DNA of 64,000 bases from Escherichia phage ES12, in the sequence record MN508614.1, one strand, 5' to 3'. Under the pieces are notes generated by a model, which saw only the letters and a program-made list of their open reading frames with translations, searched no databases and was not told the origin of the DNA. Within the stretch, counting starts at the first letter, position 1. Each line of letters starts with the position of its first letter. Shown piece by piece: positions 1 through 41,717 of this stretch. The translations under genes and the position numbers were made by a program.

Positions 1-185
1 CCTTCAATTTTAACTGTAGGTTGTGTTTCAATTTCAATTTCACGGGCATGCAAACCGTAGAAAATTTCCGGGTCTACAAAAGAGTCCTCTTTAAAGGTTT
101 TAGAGACAATAATTCGTGCTTGAATACCATCTTCAAAATAAATAGTACCTTTATGTGTGCCTTCAAGAATTTGATATGCTTTCAT
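1..185 (-). CDS. Hypothetical protein, 5' part only (gene continues past window start); N-terminus MKAYQILEG resembles a gp21-cleavable leader (I-L-E)
   Basis: ATG at 185 with GAGG Shine-Dalgarno 5 nt upstream; open frame runs to window edge; hand translation [29 protein letters not shown]... Confidence 0.45.
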
Positions 186-519
186 ATAAACCTCAATTAG
201 AAAATAAATTTATCCAAGATTGTTCTTTAATTAAAAATGGCTCAGAATCATATGCCATTAAACTTTGGGTGATTAGTCCTTTAAAAGGTCCATCAATAAA
301 TTCCATGGTAAAATATGGAATTTTATTCATTAGCCGTGCATTAGGAGCAGTGCACAAAACTCTGCATCCTTTGAATACGCCTTTTTGTAATTTGTATTGC
401 TTGGGATAAAATTCGCTCAAAATGTTATTATTTGCCAAAATTTCAAAATGATTCACCAATTTATTTTTAATAGTTTTTTGGCGAAAAATAAAGATATTCG
501 AAAAGCTGTGTGTCTGTCA

Positions 520-1110
520 TCATTGCATTCCAATCACAAAAAATTGAGGACGAACTGTTTCACCTGTTTCAGCATTATAGCTTCGACAACAGTGTTGTAC
601 CGTTTTAATATGGATATTGTAAATCTTATCCATATCAGGAGCTTTAATAGGTTCGTCAATTATGTACAAGATACGAGAAAGCGATAACCCACGGAATTTA
701 TGACCTTCATTACCGATAAAACTACGGACAGAGTCAGTAAATAAACGAAAACGTATATCATCATTAGAATAACGCGAAAATTCCTTTTTAATGTTATTTG
801 CAGAAATTTTAGCGTAAGCTGAAGTATTAGAAAGAACAATAACTGTTCCGCCATCATACAGCCAATTAGCAGCAAAGTTAGTCACAGCAATTGATTTACC
901 GGATTGACGTCCACCATCTATACGAAGTGTGCAGTACTGTTTGAGCACATCTTCCATTGGTGGAAGATAATCATTCTTACAAATTTCTTCTACTCTAGCA
1001 TCAGAATGGTGTGTAAAAGCATTCATCAGGGATAGATAAGGACCAGTTAAAAATGTTCTCATTTTATTCTCTCTAAGTTTGGGCCATTCCGTGGCGCATG
1101 AATTGTCCAT
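520..1110 (-). CDS. Standalone P-loop NTPase with terminase-large-subunit-like ATPase core (Walker A GGRQSGKS, Walker B ILYIIDEP)
   Basis: 196-aa ORF; motifs RQSGKS and FRGLSLSRILYIIDEP parallel gp17 motifs RQLGKT and [16 protein letters not shown] seen in this same window; alternative start at Met17 (1062). Confidence 0.6.
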   Translation of the reverse strand: MDNSCATEWPKLRENKMRTFLTGPYLSLMNAFTHHSDARVEEICKNDYLPPMEDVLKQYCTLRIDGGRQSGKSIAVTNFAANWLYDGGTVIVLSNTSAYAKISANNIKKEFSRYSNDDIRFRLFTDSVRSFIGNEGHKFRGLSLSRILYIIDEPIKAPDMDKIYNIHIKTVQHCCRSYNAETGETVRPQFFVIGMQ

Positions 1111-1203
1111 TTCTGTATTTACCCATTACCGCACTTGGGCTCGACCTTAACACAGGTTGGCGGGAATCCCTCACAGAATCATGAGGTCCAGGTTGTTCCC
1201 ATA

Positions 1204-1677
1204 TTATTTGAACGATTTAACGTACTGAATAGAACCCTTGCTATTCACAAAGGCAATTTTACCATTTTTATTATACATGGTAGCAGTACGCTGATAACCA
1301 TAGGTTTGTTTACCAGATTGATAACCAACTAATGCAAAATTATCTTCACCCATTTTATTCTGTTTAGCGCGAATGCGTTCATGACCATGTGCCATAAGAA
1401 CCTTAGCATCACCAGTTGCAATGGATCGACGAGTTTTTTCATCTTCAACTGCATTAACAAAGTCGTCAAATGAATCAAATTTAGCATGAGATTTATTATA
1501 CAATTTTCCATCTACTGCATAATTATATCCCTGTACATCCATCTCAACTTCTGTACCATCATCCAATACAGCAGTAATTTTTTGACCTTTTTTAAATTTC
1601 AAAAGATCAGTAAAAGATTCAGCAATAATTTGAGAATTAATAGCTGCTTCAGTGATAAATTCTTGATATGTTTTCAT
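1204..1677 (-). CDS. Internal-protein-like head-packaged protein with N-terminal capsid targeting sequence MKTYQEFITEA
   Basis: 157-aa ORF, AGGA RBS before ATG at 1677; N-terminal decapeptide matches T4 internal protein CTS consensus MKTYQEFIAE (recalled). Confidence 0.7.
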   Translation of the reverse strand: MKTYQEFITEAAINSQIIAESFTDLLKFKKGQKITAVLDDGTEVEMDVQGYNYAVDGKLYNKSHAKFDSFDDFVNAVEDEKTRRSIATGDAKVLMAHGHERIRAKQNKMGEDNFALVGYQSGKQTYGYQRTATMYNKNGKIAFVNSKGSIQYVKSFK

Positions 1678-1686
1678 GGGTTTCCT

Positions 1687-2103
1687 TTAAATGTAAATAT
1701 TTTTACCGTAATACTTATACCAATGTGGTTTCATTAAAATTTTTTCATCAAGTCGTTGTTGACTCAATTTAATAGCTGATTTGCATGGATTATAATCATT
1801 TTTCCATTCTATTGGAATATCGCTGATGTCAGGAACTTCAGTATCTTTTATACTGAACCCGCGTTTTAAGCATTCCGTTATAATGTCTAATTGACGCTTT
1901 CGCAAAAATTCTAACTTATCGTAAAAGAACGTAACATGACCAGAACCTAAAATAAACTCGGAAGATATTTTAAAATCTTTAACGCGCTTACCGTTTGCCA
2001 CATGCTTACGAACTATACCAAAAACACGCGGCAATTCACGGTATTCTGCGATTAAATGTTGATCAGCAAGTTCAGATACTAAAGTCAAATTAATACGAGT
2101 CAT
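1687..2103 (-). CDS. denV: Endonuclease V, pyrimidine dimer DNA glycosylase/AP lyase
   Basis: 138-aa ORF beginning [29 protein letters not shown], matching T4 endo V size and sequence from memory. Confidence 0.95.
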
Positions 2104-2162
2104 TTTATCCCTCCAAGTAACTGTGAATATACTATCACAATTCTAGGAGAAAGTAAACAACT

Positions 2163-3131
<969 letters not shown>

Positions 3132-3150
<19 letters not shown>

Positions 3151-3620
3151 TCAGTGATAAAGTTATTTAAATTTTGAGTATATTTCTTTTCATCAAAAAT
3201 CTTTTGTTGTCTGCGTAGCCGCCATGGCATTTCAATGAACGTATACCATATCCCAGATAATATTGATGCAGTAAAAATATTAACAAGTATGGTTAAAAGA
3301 ATCCAATCTCCTATTCTGTCCATTGGATTTTTTATAAAAAAGTAAAATACGAATAATGTCACAGGAAGACTAATAATATACCACAGAATCATAATTTTAT
3401 CTGTGAACCAATCAGCGTTCGTTAACTTAGCGCGACCATTATGAATACACACGAATTTATCATCTGTTATAATAGATGGCTTAGCTGCTTGATATCCCAT
3501 TCTAAACTCCCTAATCAACAAATTTTTCATATCTTCGGAACAACCATTCCAGTCAACTCTATCAACTGAAATGCCATCATCCCCATCATCTAAATCATAC
3601 CAGCGAGTTTTTAAAATCAT
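3132..3620 (-). CDS. Small membrane protein (two predicted TM helices), translationally coupled
   Basis: 162-aa ORF, hydrophobic segments ILWYIISLPVTLFVFYFFI and ILLTILVNIFTASILSGIWYTF; stop overlaps nudE start. Confidence 0.6.
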
Positions 3621-3991
3621 TTAATTTTCCTACAATCACTCACAAACTCTTCCATTGATTCTTTTTCAATATAAGACATGTAGCTATTATATTCCTTTAA
3701 TTGTATTTTGTAATCTTTTTTTCTTTGCCAATTTATTTTAAAATTATCATAATGAAAATATAACATGGTACCAAAGAATGAAAATAATGAAATCGCTATA
3801 GTATAATGAAGTTCACTCCAAACTTCTATTATATCTATTATACCGCTGACGTTACTACGGATGTTTAAAATAAGACAGTCAATTAACAATCCAAAAAGAC
3901 TACCCGCAAGAGCTGCAGCCAACGCTACAGCAAAAATTAAAAATGACTCATGAAGAGAATATTTGACTTTATTTAGTTTTGGCTTTTGCAT
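3617..3991 (-). CDS. Small membrane protein (two predicted TM helices), translationally coupled
   Basis: 124-aa ORF, ATG at 3991; stop TGA overlaps next start as ATGA; hydrophobic segments. Confidence 0.6.
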   Translation of the reverse strand: MQKPKLNKVKYSLHESFLIFAVALAAALAGSLFGLLIDCLILNIRSNVSGIIDIIEVWSELHYTIAISLFSFFGTMLYFHYDNFKINWQRKKDYKIQLKEYNSYMSYIEKESMEEFVSDCRKIK

Positions 3992-4365
3992 CGTGATTCC
4001 TTAACAAATTTCATAATTTCATCAAATTCATGCGCAGCAAGTTTAAGCTGATGTTCCTTTTTAATCTTTTTACACTGAGCTTTCCAATCACGTACACGTT
4101 TACGATAGTGTCTTCCTTGATACCAATATCCTATCCAATTTATAGGTACTAATAAAAGCGGAACTACCAACGGAAGAATTAGTGTTGCTCCAAATATTGC
4201 ACCAGATTCAATATCAGTCATAACGTCTATAACCATTCCAGCAATCACCAGAATCACAAATGATACAACTACCACAGGACCTATTAACACATCAGTAGAA
4301 ATTATCTGACGCTTTAATTCATACTTCAACGGTTTACTTGGAAGGTATAGTGATGGTTTTGACAT
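3973..4365 (-). CDS. Small membrane protein; start moved to first ATG (ORF-track start at 4386 is TTG)
   Basis: Hand check: codon at 4386 is TTG, first ATG at 4365; hydrophobic core ILVIAGMVIDV...ILPLVVPLLLVPI. Confidence 0.55.
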   Translation of the reverse strand: MSKPSLYLPSKPLKYELKRQIISTDVLIGPVVVVSFVILVIAGMVIDVMTDIESGAIFGATLILPLVVPLLLVPINWIGYWYQGRHYRKRVRDWKAQCKKIKKEHQLKLAAHEFDEIMKFVKESRCKSQN

Positions 4366-6545: not shown

Positions 6546-7019
6546 TTATTTGATTTGTTTAGCAGACCAAATGCGGTCTTTAATAATTTTTTGGATGTCT
6601 TCAACATACTCTAGGTCATGAGCATGTGGATTATCTTTGAAACTATAAGCACGGGCTAACTTTTGGCCTTCGGTTTTGATTACTAAAAGCTCTTTAAGGA
6701 TAGCTTCATATTTAGCGATAATTCCTTTAACGATATTTTTTTCTTGTGCCGCTTTAGGATCTGCTTTAGGAGCAGGTTTACCAGAAGCCTTTGCAAAAGC
6801 AGCGCCAGTAGCAACTAAACTTTTCCAGGCCATACTAACTGCATTTCCCGTAAATCCTTCCGCTTTCATGTCGCGTGCAAACTGGAATCGTGATTCATCA
6901 GAAGCATCTTTATAGGAATATTTACCCGCGGCAATGGCAGCTTTTGCAACAGCTTGAATTTCGGTGCTAGATGCTTCATTTAACACCGCTTCATTTAAAA
7001 ATTGAGTATATGATTTCAT
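6546..7019 (-). CDS. Internal-protein-like protein with CTS-like N-terminus MKSYTQFLNEA; Ala/Lys-rich
   Basis: Internal ATG at 7019 with AGGAAA RBS; the ORF-track N-terminal extension to 7196 crosses a terminator and structured RNA region and is rejected. Confidence 0.65.
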   Translation of the reverse strand: MKSYTQFLNEAVLNEASSTEIQAVAKAAIAAGKYSYKDASDESRFQFARDMKAEGFTGNAVSMAWKSLVATGAAFAKASGKPAPKADPKAAQEKNIVKGIIAKYEAILKELLVIKTEGQKLARAYSFKDNPHAHDLEYVEDIQKIIKDRIWSAKQIK

Positions 7020-7057: not shown

Positions 7058-7065
7058 TATTTATA
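7058..7065 (-). promoter_or_regulatory. T4-type late promoter box TATAAATA upstream of the 6546..7019 gene
   Basis: Reverse complement of plus tatttata, about 39 nt upstream of the ATG. Confidence 0.45.
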
Positions 7066-7071
7066 CCAAAA

Positions 7072-7095
7072 AGCCCCAACCTTTCGGTCGGGGCT
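7072..7095 (-). terminator. Rho-independent terminator (minus strand); inverted copy of the 6515..6538 hairpin
   Basis: agccccgacc-gaaa-gguuggggcu followed by UUUUUGG on minus strand. Confidence 0.6.
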
Positions 7096-7099
7096 AAGC

Positions 7100-7401
7100 C
7101 TTGCGGCAACCTTGTCGGGGTTCCACCTGCTAAGGCAAGTGTTTGTACGAAACGCCGGGATTCGAACCCGGTTATTAAGTAGTTGACGCTACTCAATATT
7201 TTTAAAAGGCCATATCTCGACCATATCCGAACGTTCCGTCAAAAACGCTACTCGGCTTACGGCAAAGATATTTCCTCGAATCGATAATTCGGTGCGCCGT
7301 TTCAGCTGTGATAGTAAAGAACCAGAACATAGTAAAACTGTGGGAGGAACTATACTCCAGGGAACATCAGTCCGACGACTTACCGGTAGCGACCCGGTTT
7401 C
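7100..7401 (-). ncRNA. Candidate stable structured RNA(s) downstream of the tRNA cluster, with a tRNA-like T-arm
   Basis: No credible ORF; T-arm-like ccgggttcgaatcccgg plus a 7-bp acceptor-like pairing; sits between tRNA cluster and a terminator. Confidence 0.3.
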
Positions 7402-10654: not shown

Positions 10655-10692
10655 AGGGTAATAGTATCACTACCCTATCTAAAAGTAAACTT
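10655..10692 (-). promoter_or_regulatory. PeSL-like early promoter plus stem-loop module
   Basis: Minus strand GTTTAC-18 nt-TACTAT; inverted repeat gatagggta/taccctatc around conserved core aatagtatcac. Confidence 0.55.
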
Positions 10693-10924
10693 ATTTTTTA
10701 CGAAAAATTGATTTATTTTCTGCTGCCCATTTTTCAATAACTGCAGCAGGACCAGTAACAACAATTTTATCACCGTAATCTTCTGCGGCGAGTTGACCGA
10801 AATTATCTAATGCATCACGAAGAACTCCATGAGGCATTTCACCCATTTTATCTTTCTTGCCAGTGTAAATAAACTCAACTTTTACATCAGCAGTTTCAGC
10901 AATAAATTCTTGGTAAGTTTTCAT
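10691..10924 (-). CDS. Small internal-protein-like protein with exact CTS MKTYQEFIAE
   Basis: Start set at Met5 of the ORF-track ORF (GGAAA RBS); 77 aa; N-terminus MKTYQEFIAETADVK. Confidence 0.65.
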   Translation of the reverse strand: MKTYQEFIAETADVKVEFIYTGKKDKMGEMPHGVLRDALDNFGQLAAEDYGDKIVVTGPAAVIEKWAAENKSIFRKK

Positions 10925-11000: not shown

Positions 11001-11258
11001 TTATTTTAAATCTTCTAATCGTTTCTTCATCTTAGAACCGTTCTTAGCGATTTCGCCTGCATCAGAGCATAATGCTAAAAGCGCTTTAACTTTAGTTTGG
11101 TCTCCTTTAAAAGATGAAGGATCAACAGCAGCAGCAAGTTCTTTAATACGAGAGAAAAGACGCTCAGCTTCAGCTAAAGCCATTCCAAGCTTTACTTCCA
11201 TACCATGAGAAGATTCAGTAATAGTAGTTTTTGTAGCAAACTCTTTGAAAGTTTTCAT
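11001..11258 (-). CDS. Small protein with CTS-like N-terminus MKTFKEFATK (I-T-E site at residues 13-15)
   Basis: 85-aa ORF, AGGAAA RBS, own early promoter. Confidence 0.55.
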   Translation of the reverse strand: MKTFKEFATKTTITESSHGMEVKLGMALAEAERLFSRIKELAAAVDPSSFKGDQTKVKALLALCSDAGEIAKNGSKMKKRLEDLK

Positions 11259-39814: not shown

Positions 39815-40239
39815 TGCTTCTGATCCCTGAAACTCATGAATTAGTTCTCGAGAATGTCGAAGCACTTATTCCTGAAGCACAGGGTCGCTTTGACGAATTG
39901 TCTTCTGCTTTAAATAAAGACGATATAAATACAATTGTCGAGAATATGCTTGATGATGAAACTGATTTAGCGGTTGCATTAGCTTCTATTAATGAAAATA
40001 TGCCGTTAAATGAATTCATCGTTAAACATGTTTCCGCTCGTGGTGAAATTACTCGCACTAAAGACCGCAAAACGCGTGAACGTAATGCATTTCAAACCAC
40101 TGGGCTGTCTAAAGCAAAACGTAGACAAATTGCTCGTAAAGCTACCAAAACGAAGATTGCCAATCCAGCAGGTCAATCTCGTGCTCAGCGTAAGCGTAAA
40201 AAAGCTCTTAAACGCCGTAAAGCATTAGGATTAAGCTAA
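39814..40239 (+). CDS. 68: gp68 prohead core protein
   Basis: 141 aa, basic C-terminus, T4 synteny. Confidence 0.9.
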
Positions 40240-40877
40240 TGAATGAACCCCAATTACTAATTGAAACTTGGGGTCAACCTGGCGAAATTATTGATGGCGT
40301 ACCAATGCTTGAATCTCATGATGGAAAAGACTTAGGTTTAAAACCGGGTTTATACATCGAAGGAATATTCATGCAAGCGGAAGTCGTCAATAGAAATAAA
40401 CGTCTTTATCCAAAACGTATATTAGAAAAAGCGGTAAAAGACTATATTAATGAGCAAGTTTTAACTAAACAAGCTCTCGGAGAATTAAATCATCCTCCAC
40501 GCGCTAATGTTGACCCGATGCAAGCCGCTATCATTATAGAAGATATGTGGTGGAAAGGAAATGACGTATACGGACGAGCTCGTGTTATTGAAGGTGACCA
40601 TGGTCCTGGAGATAAATTAGCAGCTAATATTCGTGCCGGATGGATTCCAGGAGTTTCTTCTCGTGGATTAGGTTCATTGACTGACACAAATAAAGGTTAT
40701 CGTATCGTAAATGAAGGATTCAAATTAACTGTAGGTGTTGATGCAGTATGGGGTCCAAGTGCTCCAGATGCATGGGTAACTCCTAAGGAAATTACCGAAT
40801 CACAGACGGCGGAAGCCGATACAAGTGCCGATGACGCCTATATGGCTCTCGCAGAGGCCATGAAAAAAGCGTTATAA
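40239..40877 (+). CDS. 21: gp21 prohead protease
   Basis: 212 aa, T4 synteny and size. Confidence 0.95.
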   Translation: MNEPQLLIETWGQPGEIIDGVPMLESHDGKDLGLKPGLYIEGIFMQAEVVNRNKRLYPKRILEKAVKDYINEQVLTKQALGELNHPPRANVDPMQAAIIIEDMWWKGNDVYGRARVIEGDHGPGDKLAANIRAGWIPGVSSRGLGSLTDTNKGYRIVNEGFKLTVGVDAVWGPSAPDAWVTPKEITESQTAEADTSADDAYMALAEAMKKAL

Positions 40878-40907: not shown

Positions 40908-41717
40908 ATGCTTAAAGAACAACTGATTGCTGAAGCGCAAAAAATTGATGCTTCCGTTGCTCTTGATAGTATTTTCGAATCAGTTAATATTTCTCCGGAA
41001 GCAAAAGAAACTTTCGGCACTGTATTCGAAGCTACCGTCAAGCAGCATGCCGTTAAATTAGCTGAATCTCATATCGCTAAAATTGCTGAAAAAGCAGAAG
41101 AAGAAGTAGAAAAAAATAAAGAAGAAGCCGAAGAAAAAGCTGAGAAGAAAATCGCTGAGCAAGCTTCTAAATTCATCGACCATCTTGCGAAAGAATGGCT
41201 CGCCGAAAATAAATTAGCAGTTGATAAAGGCATCAAAGCCGAACTGTTTGAATCCATGCTTGGTGGATTAAAAGAGCTCTTTGTTGAACACAACGTTGTT
41301 GTTCCAGAAGAATCAGTTGATGTTGTAGCTGAAATGGAAGAAGAGCTGCAAGAACATAAAGAAGAATCAGCTCGTCTGTTCGAAGAACTCAATATGCGCG
41401 ACGCATATATCAATTATGTGCAGCGTGAAGTGGCATTGAGCGAAAGTACTAAAGATCTGACTGAGTCTCAAAAAGAAAAAGTCTCTGCTCTGGTCGAAGG
41501 TATGGATTATTCAGATGCATTCTCAAGTAAATTGAGTGCCATCGTAGAAATGGTGAAGAAGTCTAATAAAGATGAAAGCACTATTACTGAGAGTATAAAT
41601 ACTCCTGATACTGAAGCAGCCGGACTGAATTTCGTCACTGAAGCTGTAGAAGATAAAACTGCACCTGGTGCAGAAGATATTGTAAGTGTATATGCGAAAG
41701 TCGCATCTCGTTTCTAA
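40908..41717 (+). CDS. 22: gp22 prohead scaffolding core protein
   Basis: 269 aa, acidic coiled-coil, T4 synteny. Confidence 0.95.
   Translation: MLKEQLIAEAQKIDASVALDSIFESVNISPEAKETFGTVFEATVKQHAVKLAESHIAKIAEKAEEEVEKNKEEAEEKAEKKIAEQASKFIDHLAKEWLAENKLAVDKGIKAELFESMLGGLKELFVEHNVVVPEESVDVVAEMEEELQEHKEESARLFEELNMRDAYINYVQREVALSESTKDLTESQKEKVSALVEGMDYSDAFSSKLSAIVEMVKKSNKDESTITESINTPDTEAAGLNFVTEAVEDKTAPGAEDIVSVYAKVASRF

Follow-up and report, generated by a model that had tools for sequence, protein, structure and literature searches.

The subject of this analysis is a stretch of 64,000 nucleotides from Escherichia phage ES12 (MN508614.1), hereafter called the window. Judged by its sequence, the minus-strand gene at 1204..1677 is ip4 (ipIV), a member of the known Ip4/IPIV family (DUF7412 / PHROG 3155) and not an unrecognized protein, and its product is a leader-bearing internal head protein. 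The best explanation overall is that this known gene very probably supplies an internal protein that is packaged, cleaved and injected. A sequence-only reading of the same DNA had placed the gene directly downstream of denV, had seen in its start a one-residue variant of the capsid targeting sequence and had remarked that 157 residues fit neither T4 IPII nor T4 IPIII. These statements were borne out. Its wider proposal, a locus with a distinct set of head-packaged proteins, held only in part: ip4 bears a leader and is distinct from IPII and IPIII, but it already has a name, and the second open reading frame (ORF) of the proposed set encodes a GrcA homologue.

The family assignment is based on profile matches and on named orthologues. 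The product of ip4, with the N-terminus MKTYQEFITEAAINS beginning MKTYQEFITEA, matched Pfam DUF7412 with 318.7 bits against a curated cut-off of 27; residues 1-157 were covered by a profile of 158 positions. PHROG 3155, 'internal virion protein', was matched at 1.2e-101. The orthologue in RB51 is annotated as 'Ip4 ... similar to T2, RB70 Ip4', and the name Ip4 is also used in wV7 and K3. T2 ipIV is 99.3% identical to the window protein, and the UniProt/BFVD entry 'Ip4 [phage K3]' shows 98% identity. Ip4/IPIV of T2, K3, RB51 and wV7 is the same gene, with 98-99% protein identity, equal length and the same leader and right flank. The mature part of Ip4 was present in 470 phage records, at >95% identity in phages of Escherichia, Shigella, Yersinia, Salmonella and Citrobacter and at 60-80% in Klebsiella and Salmonella phages. 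In a representative library of 1.84 billion proteins, the search returned only three remote homologues of the family (metagenomic, ~35% identity). Literature searches for Ip4 and ipIV produced nothing beyond a brief mention in a study of T2 repeats.

Orthology to the two T4 proteins was considered and rejected. T4 IPII has 100 residues and IPIII has 193, and both start MKTYQEFIAEA. With IPIII, BLASTP similarity was confined to residues 1-13. The match to IPII, 31% identity over 77 residues, was driven by the leader. Alignment, which had been suggested as a check on the sequence-only reading, was made both pairwise and as a multiple alignment; it gave no full-length orthology, and similarity ended after the leader. 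Leaderless T4 IPI, IPII and IPIII produced zero tblastn matches in the window. Ip4 resembles T4 IPII and IPIII in 10 of 11 leader residues, in its basic character, in the neighborhood from e to vs.8, in its dependence on upstream promoters and, presumably, in the route of packaging and processing by gp21. It differs from them in a mature part that has no detectable homology to theirs and in the position of its gene on the opposite side of denV.

The leader of ip4 is identical to the leader of T4 IPII and IPIII except for A9T. Its coding sequence had only two close DNA matches in the window, at 1677 and 10924. Leader residues 4 and 7 serve mainly capsid targeting, residues 8 and 10 processing, according to a review of the experiments of Mullaney and Black (PMC9026906). 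Ip4 has all of these determinants, Y4 and F7 for targeting and I8 and E10 for processing, and the changed residue is at position 9. Among 15 family members, F7 and E10 were invariant or nearly so. The remote metagenomic homologues begin MNFEQFLNES, MNFKDFLNES and MVTFKEIYNS...LNES. Since the determinants are kept in homologues down to ~35% identity, the leader appears to be under selection.

A second site for gp21 is predicted at I18-A19-E20, followed by S21. E20 was invariant, and the pattern [ILVM]-x-E-S was found in all close homologues; the remote ones retain L-N-E-S. The window protein reads I-A-E-S here, and its I-A-E is also what stands at the canonical leader site of T4. In the AlphaFold2 model of Ip4, confidence was low for residues 1-20 and the folded domain began at about residue 21. 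A precedent is provided by T4 IPI, whose propeptide has 19 residues and ends in I-T-E; the predicted Ip4 propeptide would have 20 residues and end in I-A-E if the second site is used. IPI/IPI*, the inhibitor of GmrSD-CT596, is leader-bearing like Ip4, and IPI is injected. In contrast to Ip4, it has the leader variant MKTFKEF..., an unrelated mature sequence, a locus adjoining 57B and an established function. The invariance of E20, the start of the modeled fold and the IPI propeptide together led to the prediction of cleavage at the second site. Thus gp21 is predicted to cleave Ip4 after E10 and probably also after E20. The predicted mature protein has 137-147 residues and an isoelectric point of 9.1-9.3.

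The partners for such a route are encoded in the window. Searches by tblastn with RB51 proteins located the genes for the prohead maturation protease and the scaffold (Table 1), as well as gp67, gp68, gp20 and gp23. Support for packaging also comes from the Yersinia phage fD1, in which the product of g129 is identical to window Ip4 at 156 of 157 residues. By liquid chromatography and tandem mass spectrometry of purified fD1 virions, g129 was listed as particle-associated; the adjacent g126 (vs.6), g127 and g128 were unlisted (PMC8309999 Table S3). In the mechanism that we propose, the leader of 10 residues would dock the Ip4 precursor onto the prohead scaffolding core. Cutting by gp21 would follow after I8-T9-E10 and probably again after I18-A19-E20. 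A basic protein of ~15.5-16.5 kDa would be left inside the DNA-filled head, and mature Ip4 would enter the host together with the DNA.

A function for the injected protein is suggested by its T4 counterparts. T4 Ip1, Ip2 and Ip3 each inhibit one distinct GmrSD type IV restriction enzyme (PMC12373910). Because each of these three blocks a GmrSD-type enzyme, an anti-defense role is the most likely one for Ip4. By analogy, Ip4 may neutralize an immediate-acting host defense whose target lies outside the GmrSD variants tested so far, a proposal that we hold with nearly as much belief as doubt. In this respect Ip4 differs from Ip2 and Ip3, for which GmrSD targets have been identified. The combined proposal is that injected Ip4 inhibits a host defense beyond the screened GmrSD enzymes by means of a fold without a solved relative, and that its gene sits in a slot bounded at the 3' side by a covarying RNA element common to several unrelated phage groups; for this combination the balance tips somewhat toward doubt. 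Since 3 of 3 characterized T4 internal proteins are specific restriction inhibitors, Ip4 offers a sensible starting point in the search for a further defense system. As a gene call ip4 matters little, for it is already named, has Pfam and PHROG families and was included in an anti-restriction screen.

The fold was approached by structure prediction. AlphaFold2 with 13 close sequences gave a model with a predicted local distance difference test score (pLDDT) of 53, and addition of the three remote homologues resulted in a pLDDT of 84. A sequence profile search of the PDB with Ip4 found nothing below E=0.6, and PADLOC gave no meaningful match for Ip4.

Several observations weigh against a packaged protein with an anti-defense role. 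For this phage, the packaging, cleavage and injection of Ip4 are predictions from the sequence. The fD1 virion preparation was impure: about half of the 277 phage proteins (113-137) were detected in it, denV and lysozyme among them, in addition to 672 proteins of the host (PMC8309999). The detection of g129 is therefore support and not proof. An exact late promoter was looked for directly upstream of ip4, and none was found. A Foldseek search with the Ip4 model returned nothing below E=0.25 from the PDB, and BFVD returned Ip4 of K3 only; neither sequence nor fold thus gave a clue to function. When ip4-10 were assayed against a panel of GmrSD variants, no reproducible inhibition was obtained (PMC12373910 Supplementary Fig. 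9). Moreover T2, an ipIV carrier, is still restricted by all three characterized GmrSD systems (PMC12373910). Because the screen was negative and T2 is restricted, an anti-GmrSD role is unproven and somewhat disfavored for the tested enzymes.

The main rival accepts packaging and assigns Ip4 a different task. According to it, Ip4, as a basic protein associated with the DNA, would serve chiefly as a filler or in ejection, through charge neutralization or help with DNA condensation and exit, and would have no specific anti-defense target. The high isoelectric point would suit such a protein. However, ip4 is dispensable, patchy in its distribution, missing from T4 and mobile as a cassette, which suits an accessory anti-defense gene better than a structural need, and all three tested T4 internal proteins proved to be specific inhibitors. 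We consider the filler role unlikely, and an anti-defense role remains our preferred reading of Ip4.

The genomic context was then weighed with regard to expression. Every gene near ip4 is carried by the minus strand, in the transcription order e, denV, ip4, a GC-rich spacer of 140 nucleotides, vs.8, vs.7, vs.6. The denV stop and the ip4 ATG are only 9 nucleotides apart, and this gap, AGGAAACCC, is Shine-Dalgarno-like. The motif TATAAATA upstream of e is the sole exact late promoter motif on this strand within 3 kilobases (kb). The arrangement in T4 is alike: for ipIII and ipII, whose products are known to enter the head, exact TATAAATA motifs occur upstream of e and at no other place. Since these T4 genes show the same pattern, it is plausible that late transcripts begun at the e promoter read through into ip4. 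We infer that ip4 would be transcribed with denV, and that late in infection it would probably be reached by transcripts from this promoter. A weak early-promoter-like sequence (GTTTAC, 17 nucleotides, TAGTAT) was found between e and denV; in T2 it stands directly before ipIV.

The same arrangement is the starting point of a second rival, in which Ip4 is unpackaged in this phage. On this view, cassette shuffling would have left the leader behind as a remnant, and Ip4, expressed early together with denV, would do its work in the cytoplasm. The position of ip4, 9 nucleotides behind the early/middle gene denV and with an exact late promoter no nearer than ~1 kb, is in line with this. In contrast, the conservation of leader determinants in homologues to ~35% identity points to selection, the orthologue was detected in fD1 virions, in which the products of its early neighbors vs.6-vs.8 were undetected, and the packaged T4 ipII and ipIII are equally without an exact late promoter of their own. 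Absence from the particle is thus very improbable, and we retain the reading of Ip4 as a packaged protein.

Comparison of related loci revealed ip4 in different surroundings. Over bases 1-2700, the window matched Escherichia phage ES26 (MN508618) at 100% identity; the figure was ~99% for wV7, RB51 and RB68 and 95.5% for Yersinia phage phiD1/fD1, and each of these phages is a Tequatrovirus. In a DNA alignment of T4, T2 and the window, ip4 together with its ribosome-binding site filled precisely the interval from the denV stop to a GC-rich block that is conserved. The same block comes directly after denV in T4. The gene order is e - ipIII - ipII - denV - vs.8 in T4, e - ipIV - vs.8 remnant with denV missing in T2, and e - denV - ip4 - vs.8 in the window, RB51 and fD1; in wV7, ip4 likewise comes after denV. 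Klebsiella Jiaodavirus has e - ip4 - IPII-like - vs.8 homologue, and Salmonella Gelderlandvirus has denV - ip4 - another leader-bearing ORF. The position of ip4 therefore varies: denV separates it from the place that ipII and ipIII have in T4, and it is found directly after e in T2 and the Klebsiella phages, and after denV here. These alignments and gene orders mark ip4 as a cassette that moves, and its slot as hypervariable.

Only the context distinguishes the window gene from T2 ipIV. When the T2 locus 2380..3285 was set beside window 1040..2160, T2 ipIV was found directly behind e, without denV. The T2 ipIV is preceded by the same TTTAAAGGAAAC-N-CATG as ip4 here. T2 is known as an ultraviolet-sensitive phage, and this fits the denV missing from its locus.

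Table 1. Positions of the features discussed in the text; window coordinates unless a comparison locus is named.
Feature	Position	Strand	Basis or remark
vs.6, 5' part, starts MKAYQILEG	1..185	minus	RB51 and T4 identity; Pfam Gly_radical on full-length orthologue
vs.8 (P-loop-like protein), downstream neighbor of ip4	520..1062	minus	RB51 annotation; PHROG 1488; alignment with T4 and RB51 vs.8
GC-rich non-coding element, constant right flank of the variable internal-protein slot, upstream of vs.8	1064..1203	minus	conservation; covarying closing helix
ip4 (ipIV), internal head protein precursor, 157 residues	1204..1677 (including stop codon)	minus	ORF and family matches
Mature Ip4 domain, residues 21-157 (predicted)	1207..1617	minus	basic, alpha/beta, small beta-barrel-like parts, without solved relative
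Second predicted gp21 site, I18-A19-E20, then S21	1618..1626	minus	conservation
Capsid targeting sequence, residues 1-10, MKTYQEFITE	1648..1677	minus	predicted gp21 cleavage after E10
Spacer of 9 nucleotides, AGGAAACCC, with ip4 ribosome-binding site	1678..1686	minus	left edge of ip4 cassette
denV (endonuclease V), upstream gene of the ip4 transcription unit	1687..2103	minus	Pfam Pyr_excise E=2e-13; RB51 annotation
e (lysozyme)	2163..2657	minus	
Closest exact copy of the T4 late promoter motif, TATAAATA, upstream of e	2684..2691	minus	presumed late source of ip4 transcripts by read-through
ORF of 157 residues, RB32ORF132c family, PHROG 2280, Pfam-less	6546..7019	minus	capsid-targeting-like leader
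Exact late promoter TATAAATA of ORF 6546..7019	7058..7065	minus	39 nucleotides upstream of ATG
Terminator-like repeats flanking ORF 6546..7019	near 7075..7105 and 6505..6540		
Gene of 77 residues with exact T4 leader MKTYQEFIAE	10691..10924	minus	PHROG 8111; adjoins 57B
Ip5, 85 residues, MKTFKEFATKTTITE...	11001..11258	minus	adjoins 57B
Gene 21, prohead maturation protease	40239..40874	plus	tblastn with RB51 proteins; gp21 100% identical
Gene 22, scaffold	40908..41714		tblastn; gp22 97.8% identical to RB51
Element copy, comparison locus L003	2305..2441		
Element copy, comparison locus L004 (T2)	2943..3081		
Element copies, comparison locus L005 (ValerieMcCarty03)	2986..3088 and 3480..3617		
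Element copy, comparison locus L006	3333..3432		
Element copy, comparison locus L012	1186..1298		
Element copy, comparison locus L013	1186..1244		
Element copy, comparison locus L014	1187..1289		

The partial ORF at the start of the window was analyzed in the same way. The sequence-only reading had described it as beginning MKAYQILEG, a start that ends in an I-x-E site, which is correct for the letters themselves, and had taken this start for a cleavable-leader-like N-terminus, which was not supported. Beginning at base 185, the ORF extends beyond the first base of the window, and I6-L7-E8 are present. Of its residues, 61 fall within the window; they match RB51 vs.6 throughout and T4 vs.6 at 98% identity. 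Full-length RB51 vs.6 matched Pfam Gly_radical at 2.2e-18 and showed ~73% identity to Escherichia coli GrcA. The glycine-radical domain of the full-length orthologue is nearly identical to that of E. coli GrcA (YfiD); divergence from bacterial GrcA is seen in the N-terminal 60 residues, whose likeness to the internal-protein leader is M-K-x-Y-Q only. The vs.6 N-terminus can be aligned with that of bacterial GrcA itself. By homology, the partial ORF is vs.6, a phage homologue of the autonomous glycyl radical cofactor, and unrelated to head packaging.

With regard to the leader determinants, only Y4 fits in vs.6; positions 7, 8 and 10 are L, E and T, and the I-x-E site is out of register. Orthologues begin MNAYQILNG, MYAYQIMSG and IKAKQILSG, so that E8 is unconserved (ILN, IMS, ILS). 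As a control for specificity, ORFs of at least 80 residues in the window were scored for [LI]-x-E within the first 12 residues, and 19 of 76 (25%) had it. Because a quarter of these N-termini have the motif, [LI]-x-E alone means little, and the full leader MKTYQEFI.E is specific. That vs.6 is a further leader-bearing head-packaged protein, as its MKAYQ start, its I-L-E at residues 6-8 and the match of its first 15 nucleotides to the ip4 start at 14 of 15 might suggest, is therefore barely credible for a GrcA homologue with a GrcA-aligned N-terminus, unmet determinants at 7, 8 and 10, an unconserved E8, a motif this common among ORF N-termini here and an fD1 orthologue, g126, that was undetected in virions (PMC8309999 Table S3).

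The non-coding element between ip4 and vs.8 is previously undescribed and, together with ORF 6546..7019, is a more original output of this analysis than ip4 itself. Counted by eye, its G+C content is ~52%; the phage average is roughly 35%. The element was highly conserved in the DNA alignment of T4, T2 and the window, and blastn found it in 980 phage records. It comes after the last internal-protein gene in Jiaodavirus (in two copies), Gelderlandvirus and Marfavirus. Its core of 31 nucleotides, CCTGTnnnAAGGnCnAGCnnAAGnGnGGnAA, also adjoins transfer RNA (tRNA) clusters in Vequintavirus and occurs in unrelated viral contigs of ~47-70 kb. When 23 distinct copies were aligned without gaps, a helix of 3-4 base pairs, with CG, GC, UA, AU and GU pairs, enclosed the core. 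Covariation of this helix was 0.253 compared to 0.099 in shuffles (0 of 500 reached it) and to ≤0.084 with the partners slid, but these controls are inflated, because the structure was derived from the same 23 sequences. Rfam gave no match to the element at E≤1, ARAGORN detected no tRNA in 1064..1203, and single-sequence folding of 1064..1203 was no better than shuffles (z = 0.76).

A coding role of the element was also considered, as T4 annotates an N-terminal extension of vs.8 there. This was rejected: stop codons break the frame in the window and in other phages, and the element is for this reason taken as non-coding. Judging from the interrupted frames, the T4 extension of vs.8 is probably spurious.

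Two further observations were made on the genes beyond the element. In Klebsiella phage ValerieMcCarty03, the gene at 3580..4161 is labeled 'putative IpIII internal head protein', yet it has no leader and is a vs.8 homologue, 34% identical to window vs.8; for these reasons the 'IpIII' label appears to be wrong. In the window, vs.7 (193..520, minus strand) is frameshifted compared to RB51 and T4, with A6 at 474..479 instead of A5, which leads to an early stop. Either genuine slippage in the phage or a mistake in the sequencing behind the ES26 record could account for the extra A.

Two more internal-protein genes and one candidate were found elsewhere in the window. The two genes lie near 57B (Table 1), Ip5 and a gene of 77 residues with the exact T4 leader; RB51 has no leader-bearing gene of 77 residues at the corresponding position. 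The ORF at 6546..7019 starts MKSYTQFLNEAVLNEA, with Y4, F7, L8 and E10 in the leader MKSYTQFLNE/AVLNE/A, and its homologues start MKTYNEFLNES and similar. It was present in 511 phage records and is 'hypothetical' among the records listed. The fD1 protein g140, which is 98% identical to its product, was detected in virions. With its own promoter and the repeats that flank it, this ORF would form a self-contained late cassette, and its product is probably an internal protein that has gone unannotated.

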